Of a stretch of DNA of 64,000 nt, positions 14,189 through 23,205 are shown one piece after another. Source of the DNA: Thermodesulfovibrionia bacterium. Lineage in GTDB: Bacteria > Nitrospirota > Thermodesulfovibrionia > UBA6902. The translations under genes and the position numbers were made by a program. The stretch lies in NCBI GenBank assembly GCA_030646035.1, contig JAUSMY010000040.1, forward strand, positions 8,081 through 72,080, read 5' to 3'. Position 1 is the stretch's first letter; each line of letters starts with the position of its first letter. The notes beneath the pieces were generated by a model, which was not told where the DNA came from, searched no databases, and saw nothing but the letters and a program-made list of their open reading frames with translations.

Positions 14189-15199
14189 TTAAAGTTTATT
14201 TGTAATCGCTATTATCTCTTCAAGTTTCCTGAGCGCGGCTCCTGAGTCAATGGCCTCTTCAGCCTGTTTAACAGCTCCAAAAAAACCGTTCGCGTGGCCG
14301 CCTGCTATCAGGGCTGCGGCTGAGTTCATTATGGTTATATCCCTTTTGGCGCCGGTTAAGCCTTTGAGTATGTCCATTGTTATCTTCGCATTCTCTTCAG
14401 CTGTTCCTCCGACAAGCTCATCCTTTCCTGCTTTTTTAAATCCTATATCCGAAGGAGACAAGTAATAGGTATTCACAGTCCCGTTTTTCAGTTCAGATAT
14501 TTTTGTATCGTCTGTATTTGTTATCTCATCCAGCCCGTCTTTGCCGTGAACGATAAATGCATGTTCAATGCCGAGGTTACATAGCACATGTGCCATTGTC
14601 TCTGTAAGCGGGTCGCTGAATACTCCGAGCACCTGTCTCTTTGCGCCGGCAGGGTTGGTAAGAGGCCCAAGTATATTGAAGACGGTCCTTATGCCCATCT
14701 CTTTTCGAGGGCCTATTGCGAACTTCATGGCAGGATGGAAGAGCGGAGCGAACATGAAGCCGAATCCGGTCTCCTGAAGGCAACGCTCTACTTTTTTAGG
14801 CTCAAGGTCTATCTTGACCCCGAGGGCCTCAAGAACATCAGCGCTTCCCGACCTGCTTGAGACAGAGCGGTTGCCGTGCTTTGCGACAGGCACGCCGCAT
14901 GCCGATACGACTATGGCAGAGGTAGTTGAGATGTTGAATGTATGCGCCATGTCGCCGCCTGTCCCGCATGTGTCAACCGTATTCAGGGGAGAATTTATTT
15001 TTGTCGCCTTTTCGCGCATGATGACCGCCGCGCCAGTGATCTCATCAATGGTCTCGCCCTTTAATCTCAGGGCTGTCAGAAAAGAGGCTGTCTGCGCGTC
15101 TGTAGACTTGCCCTCCATGATATCCCTCATGGAATCAGCCATCTGGACTTTCGAAAGGTCTCGGCCCTCTATTAACAAACTTATGGCTTCTTTTATCAT
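14189..15199 (-). CDS. trpD: anthranilate phosphoribosyltransferase
   Basis: 336-aa ORF; TrpD hallmarks (FLTALRLKGET, CGTGGD, NRSVSSRSGSADVLEALG). Confidence 0.9.
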   Translation of the reverse strand: MIKEAISLLIEGRDLSKVQMADSMRDIMEGKSTDAQTASFLTALRLKGETIDEITGAAVIMREKATKINSPLNTVDTCGTGGDMAHTFNISTTSAIVVSACGVPVAKHGNRSVSSRSGSADVLEALGVKIDLEPKKVERCLQETGFGFMFAPLFHPAMKFAIGPRKEMGIRTVFNILGPLTNPAGAKRQVLGVFSDPLTETMAHVLCNLGIEHAFIVHGKDGLDEITNTDDTKISELKNGTVNTYYLSPSDIGFKKAGKDELVGGTAEENAKITMDILKGLTGAKRDITIMNSAAALIAGGHANGFFGAVKQAEEAIDSGAALRKLEEIIAITNKL

Positions 15200-15299: not shown

Positions 15300-16259
15300 T
15301 TATGAAGAGGGCGCTGTTTCTACTTTATCTGTCGGTACGCAGACACGGTTTCTGCCGGACTGTTTTGCGATGTAGAGGGCCTTGTCGGCTCGTTCGAGGA
15401 TATCCTTCCACTGGTTGTGGTTGTCGTTTTCGTTAAATGCCGCAACCCCGCAGCTTATGGTAAGGTAGCCCCTTTCACAGCCTTTATGCTCGATCCTTAA
15501 AGACTCTATGGCTTGCCTCAGTTTTTCAGCAACAAGTATTGCCTGAGACTTCACCTGCTCATGCACAATTACGACTATCTCTTCACCGCCCCATCTGAAT
15601 ATGTCATCTGACATCCTGATGACCTCTTTTAATGTGTCAGCAACTTTCTTAAGGAGAATATCTCCTTCCAAATGGCCGTATGTATCGTTATAGTTCTTGA
15701 AGTAATCTATATCGCACATTATCAGCCCGTAATTCTGAAGGTATCTGCATGCACGGTGATGGGACTTCTTAATCGATTCATAAAAGGCATGGCGATTCCC
15801 GATCTCCATGAGGGCATCTGTTCTGGCTATCTCCTCCAGCCTTTTATTTAAATTGCCAAGTTCATCATTTTTTTGTGTAAGCTCCTTTTCAAGGTTCAGT
15901 ATCCTCTCTCCTGCCCTGACCCTGACCTTAAGCTCTGCCACGTCAAAAGGTTTTGCAACGTAATCATCAGCGCCTGCCTCAAGCCCTTCTACTATGTCCC
16001 CTTTTTTGTCTTTGCCGGTAAGCAGTATAAAATAAATATATCCTGTTTTATTCAAGGCGCGTATGTTTTTGCACAATGTGACCCCGTCCATTTCCGGCAT
16101 CATCCAGTCTGCGATTATGAACTTGATCTCTTCCTGCTGGAATATCTCCCACGCTATCATTCCGTTTTCAGCTGCTATTACTTCGTGGCCCCAGGCCTTG
16201 ACGGTCTTCTCCAGGAGTTTTCTTGATATGAGGTCGTCTTCAACAACAAGTATCTTCAT
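15300..16259 (-). CDS. response regulator with REC and GGDEF domains (signature reads GGEEI)
   Basis: 319-aa ORF; REC domain (MKILVVEDD..., phospho-acceptor region IIADWMMPEMDG); GGDEF-family domain with RWGGEEIVV at 15576-15590. Confidence 0.85.
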   Translation of the reverse strand: MKILVVEDDLISRKLLEKTVKAWGHEVIAAENGMIAWEIFQQEEIKFIIADWMMPEMDGVTLCKNIRALNKTGYIYFILLTGKDKKGDIVEGLEAGADDYVAKPFDVAELKVRVRAGERILNLEKELTQKNDELGNLNKRLEEIARTDALMEIGNRHAFYESIKKSHHRACRYLQNYGLIMCDIDYFKNYNDTYGHLEGDILLKKVADTLKEVIRMSDDIFRWGGEEIVVIVHEQVKSQAILVAEKLRQAIESLRIEHKGCERGYLTISCGVAAFNENDNHNQWKDILERADKALYIAKQSGRNRVCVPTDKVETAPSS

Positions 16260-16275: not shown

Positions 16276-19200
16276 TTAAATGCTCTCTGCGAATTTATTC
16301 AACTCGGATATCTCAGACCTGAGATTGTCAACAAGCTGTGTGAGGCCGGATATATCATTGTTTCGGCCTTTGTGCTCTATTGCCAATGCAAGGGATTGCA
16401 CCCTTGTGGCGCTCAGGTTTCCTGCCGCGCCCTTTATGCTGTGCGCATTCTTCTGCACAGTGTCCGTGTCTCCTGATGCCACGGCGTCCTCGATCGCCTT
16501 GATCTTATCCGGTACATAAGAAAGAAATTCATTCAACAGCTCTTTATAAAAGTCTTTGTCATCATCGAACCTGGCCATCGCGCTCTTTATGTCTACAGGT
16601 GTATCTGATTCAGGTTTGGCTCCGGATTCAGTAATGTCGTCAGTCGTTTTTGTTGCTATCGGTTTTGGGATGACTATTTTGGATCTTACCCACTTGGAGA
16701 TCTTCTCCAGCATCTCCTGAGGCTCAATAGGTTTTGACAGGTAGTCGTCCATCCCGGCTTCGATGCAGCGCTCAAAGTCGCCTTTCAGCGCATGTGCTGT
16801 CATTGCGATTATTGTTGTGTGCATGCCATTGTTCTCTCTTAAGCGGATCTCATTTGTGGCTTTGATGCCGTCCATCTCCGGCATCTGTATATCCATTAAA
16901 ACAATATCGTACTTTTTCTTATCCAGCGCTTCAAGCGCCAGCCTGCCGTTCTCAACAATATCAACCTGATACCCTGCTTTTGTCAGTATTTTCTGAGCCA
17001 CTTTCTGGTTGACCGGATTATCTTCAGCAAGCAGTATATTTACGCTCTGGTACTTTGTGTCCCTCAATGTGTGGCTTGTCACGATCTTATGTCTATGGGT
17101 CGATCTATCCTTTTCGTTTCCGCTGAGCACAGTGACAATTGTTTCTAAAAGCAGAGATTCCTTAACAGGCTTTATGAGATAGCCTGAACAACCTATATTC
17201 CGTATGTCGGCAACATCTCCCCGGCTCCCCAGAGATGTAAGAATAATTATCTCCGTGTCCTTGATCTCAGGCGTGTTCTTAACAATGACAGTGGTATGCT
17301 CACCGTCCATTCCAGGCATCTGCATGTCAAGCAGCATGACCTTGAACGGGTCTTTAGCTGCAGCAGCTTTCTTGAGTTCCCTGATAGCTGCAACTCCGCT
17401 GTCAACTGATACCGGCCTGCAGCCATAGTTCTCCAGTGTCTTCTCAAGTATCAGCCTATTGGTCTTGTTATCGTCGGTTATAAGCACTCTCATGCCTTTT
17501 AATTCCGGCGTTGTCTTATCAACAGGTATCGGCTGAATATCTTTCTGTTTCTTTATCGGCAGATTGAACCAGAACCTGCTCCCTTTGCCCGGTGTGGTAT
17601 CAACGCCTATCTCTCCGTTCATGAGTTCAACTAATTTTTTTGATATAGACAGGCCCAGCCCGGTTCCTCCATAGATGCGTGTTGTGGAGCCGTCTGCCTG
17701 TGAAAACTCATCAAAGATCATATCCAGCTTGTCTTCAGGCAGCCCTATCCCGGTGTCTGAAACAGAGAAGAGGATATTTTCCACATCATCGTCCTCTTCC
17801 AGAAGTTCGGCCCTTATTACCACTTCCCCTTTATGAGTGAACTTGATAGCGTTGTTGCCCAGGTTCAGCAGTATTTGGCGTATCCTGGCAGGGTCGCCTA
17901 TCAGCAGTGAACTCACTTCATGATGGATCATGCATGCGAGTTCGAGATTCTTTTCAGATGCCTGGAAGGCGAGGGTCTCGGCAACCCCTTCTACTGTAAG
18001 CCTCAGGTTGAAATCTATATGCTCTATAGGCATCTTCCCTGACTCGATCTTTGAAAAGTCCAGGATGTCATTTATTATGTTCAGAAGGGAATAAGCGCTC
18101 TTTTTAACAATTGAAAGGAAATCATACTGTTCATCCGTAAGCTCGGTATCCAGCGCCAGCGAGGTCATCCCCACAATAGCGTTCATCGGTGTGCGTATCT
18201 CATGGCTCATGTTTGCAAGGAACTCGGACTTGATCTTGTTTGCTTCTTCAGCCTTGATACGCTCTGATACAAGATCCTTGTGGGTACCCTCAAGGATGAA
18301 CATCATGTTGTTGAAGGTCTCGGTTGTTTCATAAAGCGCATCTGCTGTGGACATCTTGTAAACGTCACACTGCTCACACCTGCCGTATTTCTGTGCGAAT
18401 TGTCCCTGCACTTGTCCCCCGCAGTGTGTGCCTGCAAGCTGCCAGCATCTCACATTATGTTTTCCATAAGCAGGGCAGTCTTCTTTTCCGCACTTTTTAA
18501 ATTCCCAGCAGGTGGGGATGTAGGGATTATGAACAGGTTTGTATTCATGATTAGTGAAACCTTTTTTTGCCTCAACCTCGTTAATGATCTGCGAGAAGGT
18601 TTCAAGTGCATGGTGAAGGTTTTTTCTGTCTGTCTCAAGCTTCTCGCGTGTATCCATAAGCAGGGCTTCCACTGATTTGCGGTCAGTGATATCCTTGGCT
18701 ATTATTATTATGTCGGTGATATCGCCGTGGTCATCTTTCAGCACAGAGCCTGACAGGATGGATGGTATTGAGTCATGGCCCTTTGTCTCGCATGAGGTCT
18801 CATATCCCCTGACAATGCCTGCATCAAGGAGCATGCCGAAGAAATCAGCCTGGTCTGTCTCTCTTCCGGCCTTACCGCACAGCATGCCGAATTCACTGCC
18901 TATCAATTCATCTTTGCTGTAGCCGAGGAGGTTCACCGCTGCATTGTTAACGTTCTTGATCCTGCCTTTAGAATCCAGTATGACCATGATGTCAGCAATA
19001 GACTCCAGGATCTCGTCGAGGTGGCTTTTTGAGACCAAGACTTCAGAAAGCTTCTGGGTCATCTTATTAAATGCGAGGCCGAGTTGGCCGATCTCATCAT
19101 CTGAGGCTACATCAACCTTTTGGCTGAGGTTCCCGTCAGCAACAGATTGGAAAACAGTAACAAGGTTCTTCACCGGCCTGGATAGCGCTTTTTGCAGGAG

Positions 19201-19809
19201 AAAGGCGAGCAGAATACCGGACAATATTCCAATGGCAGCGAAAACCAAACTGAGTGTTTGTGACCGCTTTCCTTTAGATATGATCTCTTCCATGTGCCTG
19301 CTTATCTCGACCCGGACATTGTTTTTCAGTGCCAGCACATTCTCATGGGCTGAATGTTCTGTTTCAAGGAGTACCTTTTCCCATGAGCGCACCCCTTCTC
19401 CGGTACTTCCAGTGGCAAGCTCCTGTGAATAAGCAACCACTGCAGTTCTGTATTTCTTTGATTTTTCAATAAAGGCCTTCAGCATTACTTTGTCATCTTC
19501 ATGGATAAGAGTATCTTTCAGGGATTCTGAATCTGCAGTAAGCTGTTTGATGTTTTTCAGCAAAGGCTTTATATCTGTATGGCCTTCAATTACATATACG
19601 GTGAGCTGCCCCCTTATATCAACAAACCTTGAAAGAAGTTCATCTATATCCCTGAGATTTTTTCTGTGCCCTTCCTCTAAAGAAGCCAGTTCCCTGTTCA
19701 TGTATGAAGTGTGGTAGATGTCAAGCAGGCTGATAACGGCTATGAGGAATACAAGTATTCCAAGGCCGATGTATCGGAGGGCGCGGTTTGATATATGCAA
19801 CTTATTCAT
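16276..19809 (-). CDS. hybrid sensor histidine kinase (TM-HAMP-PAS-Cys-rich insert-HisKA-HATPase-REC-REC-HPt)
   Basis: 1177-aa ORF; H-box [10 protein letters not shown]-box [12 protein letters not shown], two receiver domains ([23 protein letters not shown]), HPt ([12 protein letters not shown]); 7-Cys segment at residues 434-481. Confidence 0.88.
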
Positions 19810-19811
19810 AA

Positions 19812-20705
19812 TTATTTAAATATCAGGAAAAGCGGTTCGGATATTCTCCCCTGTCCATACCAGTGCGCTGTTTTCTTATCAATGGGCTCTCCGTAGAGGC
19901 CGGGGATTGATATTCCGAAGAGATATTTCTCCCCGGATTTGGGGCTTAACCGGATGTCATCGCTATGCCCTGTATCAAGCTTGCGGCCGAACTCGATAGT
20001 CCATACGCCCTCTTTCCATACGCCTTTGGCAGGGATATCTCCCATGCTTCCTGAGGGCTTTATATGCGTGAACTGGTCTATGATGTCACCTTTGTATTCG
20101 GTAAGTATTATATTTTGATAGCTGGGGTTCCCTTCATCAGACAGCCTCAGAAGATAACGCTTCTTTCCTGTCGTACTTACAACTTCCTGTGATTTATTCT
20201 GAGAGACTGCTGAGATTATGTCGTACTTGTCATCAGCATACCCGCTCGGGTCAGTACGGTTTGCCTTCCAGTACCATATGTCAGCAGTATAGTCATCGTC
20301 CGAGAAACTGGAGAGATCGACTTTATGGTCCATCATATTCCATTTGAGGGTAAAGGTATCTTCTCTCTGCGGGCCGAGTATGTATGACTCCAGGTTGTTG
20401 TCCCATACCCATGGTTTGTGGAGCCTGTCTTCAGTAGCATCAGGGTATTTGACCAGAAAGTAGATCATATCATCAGTGTAAATACTTTTAATTGTCACAT
20501 CTGCTTCTGTCCTGACATCTTTTACCTTAAAGCTTTTTATACCCTCCCATACCTTGTCATTGGAAACTCCGTCAATGGCAGGAGACTCTTTGACTTTGGT
20601 TGAGGTGATATCTTGTGAGGCGAGGGCGGTTCCGAAGGTTAGGATAATTACTGAAGTTATTAATAAAGATGAAATAAAACCTTTCGTTTTCATATGCTCC
20701 TCCAT
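19812..20705 (-). CDS. secreted hypothetical protein co-transcribed with the hybrid kinase (possible periplasmic ligand-binding partner)
   Basis: 297-aa ORF with N-terminal signal peptide; Trp/Tyr/Asp-rich; stop abuts the kinase start codon; fold assignment not possible from sequence alone. Confidence 0.5.
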
Positions 20706-20817: not shown

Positions 20818-21399
20818 TCAGGAATTGATCTTCCTTATAAGCCATGCCATGTTCTCTCCGAGCTTCTTCATGGTCTCAATCCCTTCGCTGTCATCTTTGA
20901 CCTCGCCCGGTTTTCTTCCGATGCCGATATTCCAGTAGCTTGAGCCGGGGATTATCATCTCCCCTATGAGGAAGAAGTAGTTTAAAGAGCTGAAGACATG
21001 GCTGGCGCCGGCGCGCCGTACGGCGACAACAGCGGCTCCTGCCTTGCGCTTTAACATATTGTCATTGGCGCGTGATACCATGCCTGCTCTTTCGATCAGA
21101 GCCTTCATATTTGCAGAGACATCGGCAAAATAGGTGGGAGAGCCGAGAATGATACCGTCAGCCTCAAGCATCTTTTCGATGCATTCATTTGCGATATCAT
21201 TATCAACGCTGCATCTCTTGTCCTTTTTGTCGAAGCACTTAAAGCATCCGATGCATCCGTGGATAGGCTTGCCTGCCATCTGAAAGAGTTCGGTCTCAAT
21301 GCCTTCTCTGCTTATCTCATCCAGAACAGAATTTAAGAGTATAGCCGTATTTCCGTCTTTGCGCGCGCTTCCGTTAAAACCGATAACCTTCATCTGCAA
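20818..21399 (-). CDS. NADPH-dependent FMN reductase / iron-sulfur flavoprotein family
   Basis: 193-aa ORF; flavodoxin-like N-terminus (KVIGFNGSARKDGNT) and compact Cys cluster (HGCIGCFKC...C) as in Isf-type flavoproteins. Confidence 0.7.
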   Translation of the reverse strand: MQMKVIGFNGSARKDGNTAILLNSVLDEISREGIETELFQMAGKPIHGCIGCFKCFDKKDKRCSVDNDIANECIEKMLEADGIILGSPTYFADVSANMKALIERAGMVSRANDNMLKRKAGAAVVAVRRAGASHVFSSLNYFFLIGEMIIPGSSYWNIGIGRKPGEVKDDSEGIETMKKLGENMAWLIRKINS

Positions 21400-21420: not shown

Positions 21421-21969
21421 TCAGCGGATTATTTTTGTGAATTTTGAACCCTCGATGGTCAGGTTGAACATAAGCCCTTTATTGCTGAATACAAAGCCGA
21501 CTATCGGGTCTTCTATATTCATGGTATTGATGTCGCCTCCTTCACCCCATTTCACTATGGCGACTGAGCCGTCTACCCCGGCTTTCCATCCGTCGCTCTT
21601 CCTGAAATCGGCAAGCGCTTTGTTTTCGAGGAATACAATAACTATTGACTTTGACTGCGCCCCGAGCTGAAACCCGATAGATGCTGCGGCTGTGCTGTAA
21701 TATTCTTCTGATTTGCCGTCTATACGCAGCACACCCTCGCCGTATTCTCCGCCTACACCGATGCCTGCTTTTATCACTCCGGAGAAGATAAGCACGCCTT
21801 TTGCTTTTTTGAGAAACTCACTCCCTCCGGGGATCTCTTTCTGGAACTGCGCCAGAGTGGCGTCAGCGTCTATGTTTATCTCATCCCTGCTCTTTGCCTC
21901 TGAGGCGCTGATTCCGGCAAACAATACGATAAAACTAACAACTGCAACAATGGCTCTCTTCATCTTCAT
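21421..21969 (-). CDS. secreted SYLF/Ysc84-like (DUF500-type) lipid-binding domain protein
   Basis: 182-aa ORF with signal peptide; Gly-rich repeated strands (AGIGVGGEYGEGVL, ASIGFQLGAQ) resembling the SYLF fold; tentative. Confidence 0.45.
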   Translation of the reverse strand: MKMKRAIVAVVSFIVLFAGISASEAKSRDEINIDADATLAQFQKEIPGGSEFLKKAKGVLIFSGVIKAGIGVGGEYGEGVLRIDGKSEEYYSTAAASIGFQLGAQSKSIVIVFLENKALADFRKSDGWKAGVDGSVAIVKWGEGGDINTMNIEDPIVGFVFSNKGLMFNLTIEGSKFTKIIR

Positions 21970-21990: not shown

Positions 21991-23205
21991 TTAGTTATCT
22001 GATTTGACACGCCTGATAAGATCATTTTCTCTCACTCCATCAACAGAAGGGATTGATACGATCTCTTCGTTCCTGCCCACATCAACGTGCTTTCCCTTTT
22101 CATTACATATATCATCCACAATGAATGATCTATCTTCAAGTCCTGTTGACAGGAATTCGACACTATCTCCTGTGCTGAGATTGTTCCTTAATAGGATATC
22201 GATTCTGCCGTTATGGACTGATCTCACTATGCCGACCAGATCATGGCTCATCCTGTAAACATTTTCTTCATTATGATTGTAATCTTCATCAGGCTGCTTG
22301 CCAAGAAACATACCTGTTGTATAACCTCTGCTTGAGATCATGGAAAGTTCTCTAAGCCATCTCTCCTGCACAACGTAGGGACGATCCTTCAGGCTGTCAA
22401 CCGCTTCCCTGTAAGTCTTGATCACTCCGGCAACGTAATTTATGCCCTTCATGCGCCCCTCTATCTTAAAGCTGTCAATCCCTGCATCGGCAAGCTTATC
22501 AAGGTGCTCTAACATGCAGAGGTCTTTTGAGCTCATCATGTATGTGCCTCGCTTGTCTTCATAAACAGGATGAAACTCATCAGGCCGTTTCTCCTCCATT
22601 AGCGTATAGTTCCATCTGCAGGAGTTTGTGCATTCCCCATGGTTGGCAGGCCTGTTGGCGAGAAAGCTGCTGATATAGCACCTACCAGAATAAGAGATGC
22701 ATATTGCGCCGTGGACAAAGCACTCAAGCTCGATTGATACACTGTCGCGTATCTCTTTTATCTCATCGATCGCAAGCTCTCTTGCAAGGACGAGCCTTTT
22801 AGCACCGGCCTTTTCCCAGAATAGGGCGGTCTTAGGGTTTGTGATATTTGCCTGCGTGCTTATATGGATCGGGATCTCCGGCGAGATATCTTTTGCCATC
22901 TCAAAGATGCCGAGGTCAGAGATTATTATTCCGTCCGGTTTTGCCCTTTTTAGAAAGGTTAAATGATCTTTTATCGGAGAGATATCTCTGCTGTGAGGTA
23001 TGATGTTTGCAGTGATATATATTCTTTTGCCTTTTTGATGGACCAGCTCAACGGCCTTTATCAGCCCATCTTCATCAAAGTTACCGGCCTTTGCCCTGAG
23101 GCTGAATTCAGAAAGCCCCAGATATACCGCGTCGGCGCCGTAGTGAAGCGCGGTTATCAGTTTTTCAAAGTTGCCGGCAGGCGCCAGGAGTTCGGGTGTC
23201 TTCAT
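21991..23205 (-). CDS. peptidase U32 family protein (Fe-S dependent hydroxylase-type, RlhA/TrhP/YhbU-like)
   Basis: 404-aa ORF; U32 N-terminus (ELLAPAGNFEKL...GADAVYLG) and conserved Cys cluster (ECFVHGAICISYSGRCY, C..C). Confidence 0.85.
   Translation of the reverse strand: MKTPELLAPAGNFEKLITALHYGADAVYLGLSEFSLRAKAGNFDEDGLIKAVELVHQKGKRIYITANIIPHSRDISPIKDHLTFLKRAKPDGIIISDLGIFEMAKDISPEIPIHISTQANITNPKTALFWEKAGAKRLVLARELAIDEIKEIRDSVSIELECFVHGAICISYSGRCYISSFLANRPANHGECTNSCRWNYTLMEEKRPDEFHPVYEDKRGTYMMSSKDLCMLEHLDKLADAGIDSFKIEGRMKGINYVAGVIKTYREAVDSLKDRPYVVQERWLRELSMISSRGYTTGMFLGKQPDEDYNHNEENVYRMSHDLVGIVRSVHNGRIDILLRNNLSTGDSVEFLSTGLEDRSFIVDDICNEKGKHVDVGRNEEIVSIPSVDGVRENDLIRRVKSDN

Follow-up and report, generated by a model that had tools for sequence, protein, structure and literature searches.

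A two-CW cysteine domain next to the AS2-like helix of a Thermodesulfovibrionia hybrid kinase: a candidate metal-binding input module

The hybrid kinase and its cysteine-rich segment

We have analyzed a 64,000-nucleotide stretch of DNA from a Thermodesulfovibrionia bacterium (contig JAUSMY010000040.1, positions 8,081 to 72,080), referred to here as the window. This report deals with one of its genes, which encodes a hybrid sensor histidine kinase, and with a segment of that kinase that contains seven cysteines. The coordinates of the features discussed are collected in Table 1. The kinase is 100% identical to a protein (P0005) annotated from a metagenome-assembled genome (MAG) of Thermodesulfovibrionia (Nitrospirota). 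From the N-terminus, its layout comprises a transmembrane helix (TM1), a periplasmic 4HB-like region, a second transmembrane helix (TM2), a HAMP domain, a PAS domain, a helix, the cysteine-rich segment (a two-CW domain, as described below), an AS2-like helix, HisKA and HATPase domains, two REC domains and an Hpt domain, the last three being Pfam assignments with Hpt at residues 1090-1170. No Pfam model covers residues 377-526. Hydropathy places hydrophobic segments at about residues 12-34 and 186-208; since HAMP and PAS follow, all residues after 208 are expected to be cytoplasmic, including the cysteine segment. An extracytoplasmic disulfide domain was rejected on these grounds. So was c-type heme attachment, because the segment is cytoplasmic and has no CxxCH motif, its sole CxxC being CEQC followed by Asp.

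Translated from the minus strand, the interval that encodes the seven-cysteine core gives residues 434-481 of the 1177-residue open reading frame (ORF). The plus-strand frame of the same interval is unrelated nonsense, and the first-pass annotation that drew attention to the segment named no strand. Its claim of a seven-cysteine segment between PAS and HisKA is nevertheless confirmed by the translation, by the Pfam domain boundaries and by the clustering of the cysteines. Seven of the 13 cysteines in the protein fall within these 48 residues, compared with a rate of 6 in 1129 elsewhere, which corresponds to a binomial probability of 7e-9 for a single segment and of ~8e-6 over the ~1130 segments of that length. 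The same annotation counted two CxxC pairs, but the successive spacings of 5, 4, 9, 7, 14 and 2 residues leave room for only one, C478-x2-C481. The peptide it quoted matches residues 434-481 as its coordinates require and then runs on for two residues too many (D482 and V483).

The segment belongs to a catalogued family, a fact that had been overlooked, as had its HAMP-like setting. Residues 433-488 match the NCBIfam model NF045718 (two_CW_domain) with 47.3 bits (cutoff 35) and an expected value (E-value) of 2e-12, covering model positions 2-78 of 80. The two Cys-Trp dipeptides to which the family name refers are present as C434-W435 and C455-W456, and the score, the dipeptides and the cysteine set with its fixed spacing all agree with membership. 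Residues 433-488 are accordingly identified, by sequence comparison, as a two-CW domain. This domain is widespread, catalogued and uncharacterized, and is in itself no discovery; NF045718 is a sequence model only. A Pfam search with the cysteine segment alone (E<=10) returned nothing but a spurious 13-residue match to XAF1_C (E 0.06), and a profile search of PDB sequences gave only chance matches to cysteine-rich proteins (a thrombospondin repeat and a conotoxin, E>0.2). Literature searches by family name, accession and peptide motif found nothing relevant to two-CW.

These data also dispose of the idea that the segment is a functionless cysteine-rich linker that arose by chance, or an annotation artefact. 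The only point in its favor is the absence of a Pfam model, and it is refuted by the clustering probability, by the NCBIfam match and by the invariance of the cysteines across ~2,000 sequence clusters; we give it practically no credence.

Conservation, distribution and HAMP setting of the two-CW domain

The seven cysteines are invariant in 24 related hybrid kinases whose overall identity falls to ~45%. Among 302 copies of the domain taken from very different proteins, each of the seven is at least 99% conserved. The first-pass annotation had proposed that a lack of conservation in orthologs would refute its reading, and on this point the reading stands. Other residues are conserved at 94-99% in the 302 copies (P446, G460, T461, G465, Q468, G469 and K474), and tryptophan is found in 89% at the first CW and in 72% at the second. 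The position of His462 is variable (L, F or H). This histidine was therefore rejected as a ligand, and the ligand set would consist of cysteines only.

At 50% identity, an exhaustive profile search yielded 1962 sequence clusters with E<=1e-3, including 804 with E<=1e-10. A collection clustered at 90% identity gave 3906 matches, many of them proteins of 63-100 residues that are made of the domain alone and start with Met-Asn-Cys-Trp; some of these are already labelled 'two-CW domain-containing protein' by NCBI. The word-indexed search of that collection listed only proteins of 63-102 residues, the long kinases being absent despite their higher scores in the exhaustive search, and architecture statistics should thus be drawn from the exhaustive search at 50% identity. 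Among 144 multidomain representatives, Pfam identified the outputs HisKA (79), GGDEF (25), MCPsignal (8), EAL (3) and HD_5 (1). The domain is thus fused to histidine kinase, GGDEF, methyl-accepting chemotaxis protein (MCP), EAL and HD-GYP outputs, and PAS, GAF, Cache and CHASE inputs also occur. Two copies are present in 11 of 291 proteins. An AlphaFold2 model built with 78 diverse sequences (pLDDT 82, pTM 0.67) shows loops and short helices packed into a small bundle, to which the PDB has no match; with 25 close sequences the model was unusable (pLDDT 57). Because stand-alone proteins exist and the better model reaches a pLDDT of 82, we conclude that two-CW is a module of ~55 residues that folds on its own.

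All members with a named source are MAG or metagenome sequences. They come from Nitrospirota (Thermodesulfovibrionia), Candidatus Sulfobium, Desulfobacterales, Desulfobulbus and Desulfobaccales, and further from subsurface Thermoleophilia (Gaiellales), Phycisphaerae, Halanaerobiales, Caldiserica and one marine sediment metagenome. Most of these lineages or sites are anoxic. Several genomes carry more than one copy. A plasmid collection gave no two-CW match, which is uninformative.

The sequences on either side of the domain resemble the two halves of a HAMP domain. In 158 multidomain members, the sequence after the last cysteine follows the consensus C-[ED]-V-[YF]-x-x-[AS]-x-x-D-P-[IVL]-x-E-[IL]-G-E-x-F-N-N-M-M-x-[IL]-L-E, which carries the signature of the HAMP helix AS2, with D-x-I-G-E-x-F-N-x-M kept. 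Before the first cysteine the consensus is L..A..eIS.LI..V..kkgF.vRF.NP.L..C. These flanks were compared by hhalign with a profile of 169 canonical HAMP domains from the same set of proteins. The segment after the cysteines matches template columns 34-53 (probability 86%, P 5e-6), and the segment before them matches AS1 and the connector (columns 6-31) weakly (probability 17%, P 0.0015) and in the correct order. The domain, together with one residue ahead of the first cysteine and six behind the last, was excised in silico in 139 members; the flanks, once joined, matched HAMP columns 5-53 of 54 with a probability of 95.7% (P 1e-8), compared with 4.5% for a reversed-sequence control. The Pfam HAMP model (gathering cutoff 25) scored 27.8-43.1 bits in seven of ten spliced sequences, each with an alignment that runs across the splice junction and takes in almost the whole model. 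Native proteins show the same order, namely TM2, AS1, 'GNLDxRV', two-CW and 'GDEIxQLxxxFNxM'; in P0327 a transmembrane helix is followed by 'KPVKALRHATEEMIKGNLDARVELPIVP', two-CW and 'GDEIQQLSATFNYMVSDL'. In the family at large, the two-CW domain thus lies, by these comparisons of sequence, between the HAMP connector and AS2. In the window kinase the place of AS1 and connector is taken by the linker of residues 377-432, in which neither is recognizable, and the AS2-like helix keeps the motif E497-T-F-N-N-M-M. A HAMP domain with an inserted cysteine-rich domain was not found in the searchable literature.

The domain lies immediately upstream of the helix that runs to the phospho-accepting histidine. 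The distance from the last cysteine to the H-box histidine is 55 residues in 46 proteins, among them the window kinase (C481 to H536). The other distances observed are 62, 69, 83 and 90, and kinases with an H-box of the HEINNP type have 57 or 64. Measured from the F-N of AS2, the histidine lies at 36, 43, 50, 64 or 71 residues, or at 38 and 45. Since the distances change by seven-residue (heptad) steps, AS2 and the DHp helix are predicted to form one continuous coiled-coil helix. Canonical HAMP-DHp kinases in the sequence set gave only two cases usable for comparing the AS2-to-histidine spacing. As far as we have found, the placement in the HAMP connector, the heptad-locked link to the phospho-histidine and the cassette-like gain and loss described below are all undescribed.

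Table 1. Features of the hybrid kinase gene and its surroundings in the window.
Feature	Coordinates	Strand	Remarks	Basis
Hybrid sensor histidine kinase gene	16276..19809	-	1177 aa	ORF list, Pfam, hydropathy
Canonical membrane-proximal HAMP	19045..19194	-	residues 206-255	Pfam PF00672, E 2.2e-14
PAS domain	18682..19023	-	residues 263-376	Pfam PAS_9, E 1.6e-14
Post-PAS helical linker	18514..18681	-	residues 377-432, ends in 'KGF..(R)F.NP.(I/L)P'	family consensus
Two-CW domain	18346..18513	-	residues 433-488	NCBIfam NF045718, full-length match
Seven-Cys core	18367..18510	-	C434-W-x4-C440-x4-C445-P-x8-C455-W-x6-C463-x14-C478-x2-C481	translation and spacing
AS2-like helix	18271..18345	-	residues 489-513, predicted to run on into DHp helix	hhalign and motif frequencies
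Optional cassette (helix, two-CW, AS2-like helix)	18280..18666	-	residues about 382-510	alignment with five relatives
HisKA (DHp)	18037..18231	-	residues 527-591	Pfam PF00512, E 4.9e-22
Codon of His536, predicted phospho-acceptor	18202..18204	-	H-box SHEIRTP	55 residues past last Cys
HATPase_c catalytic domain	17551..17898	-	residues 638-753	Pfam PF02518, E 2.2e-30
Secreted EB_dh-family protein gene	19812..20705	-	upstream in operon	Pfam PF09459, E 1.6e-19
REC-GGDEF response regulator (diguanylate cyclase) gene	15300..16259	-	downstream in operon	Pfam REC and GGDEF
Anthranilate phosphoribosyltransferase-type gene	14189-15199	-		Glycos_transf_3
FMN_red-family flavoprotein gene	20818-21399	-	193 aa	
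Secreted Ysc84-like protein gene	21421-21969	-		
Peptidase U32 family protein gene	21991-23205	-		

The optional cassette, its operon and the stand-alone proteins

The helix, two-CW domain and AS2-like helix are gained or lost together. Five close relatives of the window kinase (P0021, P0022, P0024, P0025 and P0033) share its layout, TM1 through Hpt, with a single gap of 122-129 residues (about 382/387 to 508/510), and in these cassette-less proteins the C-terminus of PAS is joined straight to the DHp helix. One of them, P0024 (L091, 4001-7132), lacks two-CW and yet is encoded between EB_dh and REC-GGDEF genes as the window kinase is, so that the two form a natural pair with and without the unit in the same type of operon. 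From these alignments, the unit of ~125 residues is judged a self-contained optional cassette, and because it comes and goes as such it would be an added input to the kinase rather than a structural requirement. In three other proteins (P0241, P0242 and P0247) the whole AS1-like, two-CW and AS2 unit is repeated in tandem upstream of GGDEF or HisKA, with a period of ~126 residues in P0241. These tandem units resemble a poly-HAMP array with the seven-cysteine insert in each HAMP.

The behavior of the cassette bears on a structural explanation of the module, namely that it binds one or two Zn2+ (for example as Zn2Cys7 with a bridging thiolate, or as ZnCys4 with three spare cysteines) and stiffens or dimerizes the exceptionally long HAMP connector without a signal of its own. 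Small cysteine-only domains with short helices and loops often bind zinc and the AlphaFold2 model is of this kind; the lack of a conserved histidine, the presence of one CxxC knuckle and the lack of a match to any iron-sulfur family can be counted on the same side. However, a structural brace is not expected to occur as a cassette that is gained and lost, or as a free protein of 65 residues, whereas this module can be present or missing where operon and kinase are otherwise identical, and it is shuffled among many outputs as a sensor domain would be. The single CxxC knuckle also falls short of two would-be zinc sites, and the invariant ligands number seven, not four or eight, with an eight-cysteine subgroup besides. 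No named sequence comes from a cultured aerobe, though zinc fingers need not avoid aerobes; this last point is weak, the sampling being biased. Taken together, these observations make a purely structural zinc site rather unlikely. The segment had no profile or fold match to zinc-finger or zinc-ribbon families, whether solved or curated.

In the window the stop codon of the EB_dh gene lies 2 nucleotides ahead of the start of the kinase gene, and the REC-GGDEF gene follows. The EB_dh family is related to the heme-b-binding gamma subunit of ethylbenzene dehydrogenase, and the secreted protein may serve the 4HB-like region of the kinase as a co-sensor in the periplasm. The REC-GGDEF protein is the likely endpoint of the phosphorelay. 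The order EB_dh, hybrid kinase, REC-GGDEF is kept in relatives, including the two-CW-bearing P0013 and P0019, while the genes that flank it differ (L084, L085 and L091). Adjoining the operon in the window is the gene of an FMN_red-family protein with a cysteine cluster, C-x2-C-x2-C-x7-C (HGCIGCFKCFDKKDKRC), which resembles the iron-sulfur flavoproteins of anaerobes; it is not kept beside the operon in the relatives. The remaining flanking genes are listed in Table 1.

One stand-alone two-CW protein of 64 residues (P0240; L087, 4001-4195) is encoded 36 nucleotides upstream of the gene of a PAS hybrid kinase, with the gene of a sigma-54-type response regulator on its other side. This locus could be taken for the fused arrangement split in two, and P0240 may be a trans-acting form of the module. 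The neighbors of the other stand-alone genes vary and are unrelated (L086, L089 and L002). No partner gene, for instance for a radical-SAM maturase or for iron-sulfur assembly, was conserved among the stand-alone neighborhoods examined. The possibility that these small proteins are precursors of ribosomally synthesized and post-translationally modified peptides was dropped, the neighborhoods being without a conserved maturase-type partner.

The putative metal site, its role and its relation to known sensors

The number of cysteines gives some clues about the arrangement of the site. Among the 302 copies, 228 have seven cysteines and 67 have eight. The eighth usually lies two residues past the third (C-P-C), at the equivalent of A447 in the window kinase, and this position co-varies with the first tryptophan (W435): W/A is found in 188 copies and Y/C in 24, versus W/C in 9 and Y/A in 1. 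In broader terms, W goes with A, V or S, and Y or H goes with C, a pairing that defines the eight-cysteine subgroup. Because the extra cysteine co-varies with the loss of the first tryptophan, the two positions are probably neighbors, which suggests one site with three or four cysteine ligands. The counts would fit two metal centers, with the ligands split 4+3 or 4+4; for the seven thiolates of the window kinase a 4+3 grouping is proposed.

The same cysteines could instead act without any resident cofactor, as a direct sensor of thiol-reactive compounds or soft ligands: free cysteines would form disulfides or persulfides with an oxidant or with sulfide or polysulfide, or would bind Cu(I), Cd, Hg or As(III). 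The ligand set, made of cysteine without His or Asp, suits such a sensor, as do the variation between seven and eight cysteines and the occurrence of members in sulfate- and sulfur-cycling lineages; three-cysteine sites are moreover typical of As(III) and Cu(I) sensors. Set against this are the seven invariant cysteines, whose fixed spacing and surrounding invariant Gly, Thr, Gln and Lys residues point to a pre-organized cluster site, and a 55-residue domain with 13% cysteine is unlikely to fold without a bound center. The neighborhoods examined also contained no metal-resistance or sulfur-stress genes; an ACR_tran efflux gene lies near one relative that lacks two-CW. We regard a cofactor-free sensor of this kind as improbable.

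The explanation we favor, with a confidence a little better than even, is that two-CW in a HAMP-type transmitter is an optional metal- or iron-sulfur-binding module, an extra cytoplasmic input that would act on the kinase through AS2. The sensor-module proposal of the first-pass annotation survives in this form, for the module behaves like a signaling input domain in its fusions, its free copies, its position and its occurrence as a cassette; the argument from two CxxC pairs, being a miscount, falls away. In the proposed mechanism, the seven thiolates would hold a metal center, most likely iron-sulfur, in two sites split 4+3, and the domain would sit where AS2, as part of a HAMP-type bundle, has its N-terminus. 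In the window kinase the AS1 side would have decayed into the post-PAS coiled coil and the AS2-like helix would have been kept, with an unbroken helix over the 55 residues from the last cysteine to the phospho-accepting His536. The state of the center, such as its redox state, its occupancy or its loss on exposure to O2, nitric oxide (NO) or another oxidant, could alter the bearing of the domain on the start of AS2. A shift of AS2 would then change the packing of the HAMP-like bundle, and with it how the DHp-CA core balances its kinase and phosphatase activities. From there the signal would travel by way of both REC domains and Hpt, reach the neighboring REC-GGDEF protein and set the synthesis of cyclic di-GMP (c-di-GMP). 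The unit would thereby add an input to a kinase that already has a PAS domain and a periplasmic 4HB-like region, the latter with an EB_dh-family partner gene.

Several observations weigh against this explanation, or limit how far it can be taken. That a metal is bound we infer from the cysteine pattern; which metal it is, what the stimulus is and in which direction the signal acts are inferences as well. The segment has no known iron-sulfur motif (no CxxCxxCxxxCP), no match to Fer4 or any other Pfam family, and one CxxC only. Searches of the literature and of the PDB found no function, cofactor, experiment or solved structure for any member of the family. The spliced sequence of the window kinase itself has no Pfam HAMP match and its AS1 half is undetectable, and its ortholog group matches HAMP AS2 alone (hhalign probability 74%, P 2.8e-5). 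For this reason the unit in the window, made up of the post-PAS coiled coil, the two-CW domain and the AS2-like helix, is termed HAMP-derived or AS2-like and is not considered a HAMP member. The stand-alone proteins have no HAMP, so signaling through AS2 cannot be the only mode of the module. The argument from habitat is weak, since the genome scan relied on a single narrow peptide pattern taken from Nitrospirota sequences, which biases the census, and since lineage and sampling site served as the guide to how the MAGs would tolerate oxygen.

A more ambitious form of the metal-sensor proposal is possible, and we put it forward only tentatively. Two-CW could be a new class of two-site iron-sulfur sensor, with seven- and eight-cysteine forms, lodged in the HAMP connector. 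It would then be the first cofactor-bearing HAMP, a cassette of ~125 residues that anaerobes splice between any input and any output, be it a kinase, a diguanylate cyclase or a chemoreceptor, so as to gate the latter by cytoplasmic redox, O2, NO or iron-sulfur status, with the free 65-residue proteins as trans-acting forms.

HAMP, one of the commonest signal-converting modules of bacteria, is regarded as a passive relay that hands the signal of a sensor on to an output. If a seven-cysteine metal center does sit in its connector, the relay itself can sense. At ~125 residues, and with natural forms that carry or lack the insert in the same operon, the unit would then be a defined and portable system in which to ask how a local change where AS2 begins is converted into the output of a kinase, a cyclase or a chemoreceptor. 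A function would further be assigned to ~2,000 sequence clusters found almost only in uncultured anaerobes and, in this organism, control of c-di-GMP would have a cytoplasmic redox or metal input. Should the domain bind nothing but structural zinc, it is a curiosity of domain architecture. The HAMP placement, the heptad link and the gain and loss of the cassette make the metal-sensor hypothesis directly testable.

The closest points of comparison are as follows. The two-CW unit resembles HAMP (PF00672) in its flanks, the first of which corresponds to AS1 with the connector and the second to AS2, and in a helix that leads into DHp in heptad steps; it differs in that the connector is broken just before AS2 by the seven-cysteine domain of ~55 residues. 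In MCPs and diguanylate cyclases, the chemoreceptor zinc-binding (CZB) domain forms a four-helix bundle that has a zinc site of three His and one Cys and usually lies at the C-terminus. Like CZB, two-CW is a small, putatively metal-binding module that is promiscuously fused to MCP and GGDEF outputs, is also found alone and would signal by the state of its metal site; unlike CZB, its candidate ligands are cysteines only, and it lies inside HAMP, N-terminal to the output. In Aer, a PAS domain that binds flavin adenine dinucleotide forms a separate N-terminal domain and docks laterally on HAMP. Here too a domain with a cofactor, putative in the case of two-CW, would act on the AS2 region of HAMP and not by a transmembrane piston, although the two-CW domain is covalently inserted in the HAMP connector. 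The 7Fe and 8Fe ferredoxins, of ~55 residues with a Cys-Pro motif, exist as seven- and eight-cysteine variants that hold [3Fe-4S] plus [4Fe-4S] or two [4Fe-4S] clusters, respectively. Two-CW is similar in size, in cysteine number and in Cys-Pro, a numerical analogy only, and it differs in having no CxxCxxCxxxCP, no Fer4 match in Pfam and a predicted fold without a PDB match.

The iron-sulfur sensor kinases NreB (PAS, [4Fe-4S]) and AirS ([2Fe-2S]) were reviewed by Unden et al. (2013, as cited in PMC8199190). As far as this secondhand account goes, they carry a four-cysteine cluster in a PAS or GAF fold, whereas two-CW has seven cysteines with other spacing and no relation to them in sequence or fold. 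In the window kinase, PAS ends at residue 376 and the cysteine cluster at 434-481 matches neither PAS nor GAF, which sets it apart from the NreB type. What two-CW would share with NreB and AirS, within the same account, is a cytoplasmic cofactor module with cysteine ligands placed upstream of the DHp-CA core, and in this sense they provide a working analogy for the sensing of O2 or redox state.

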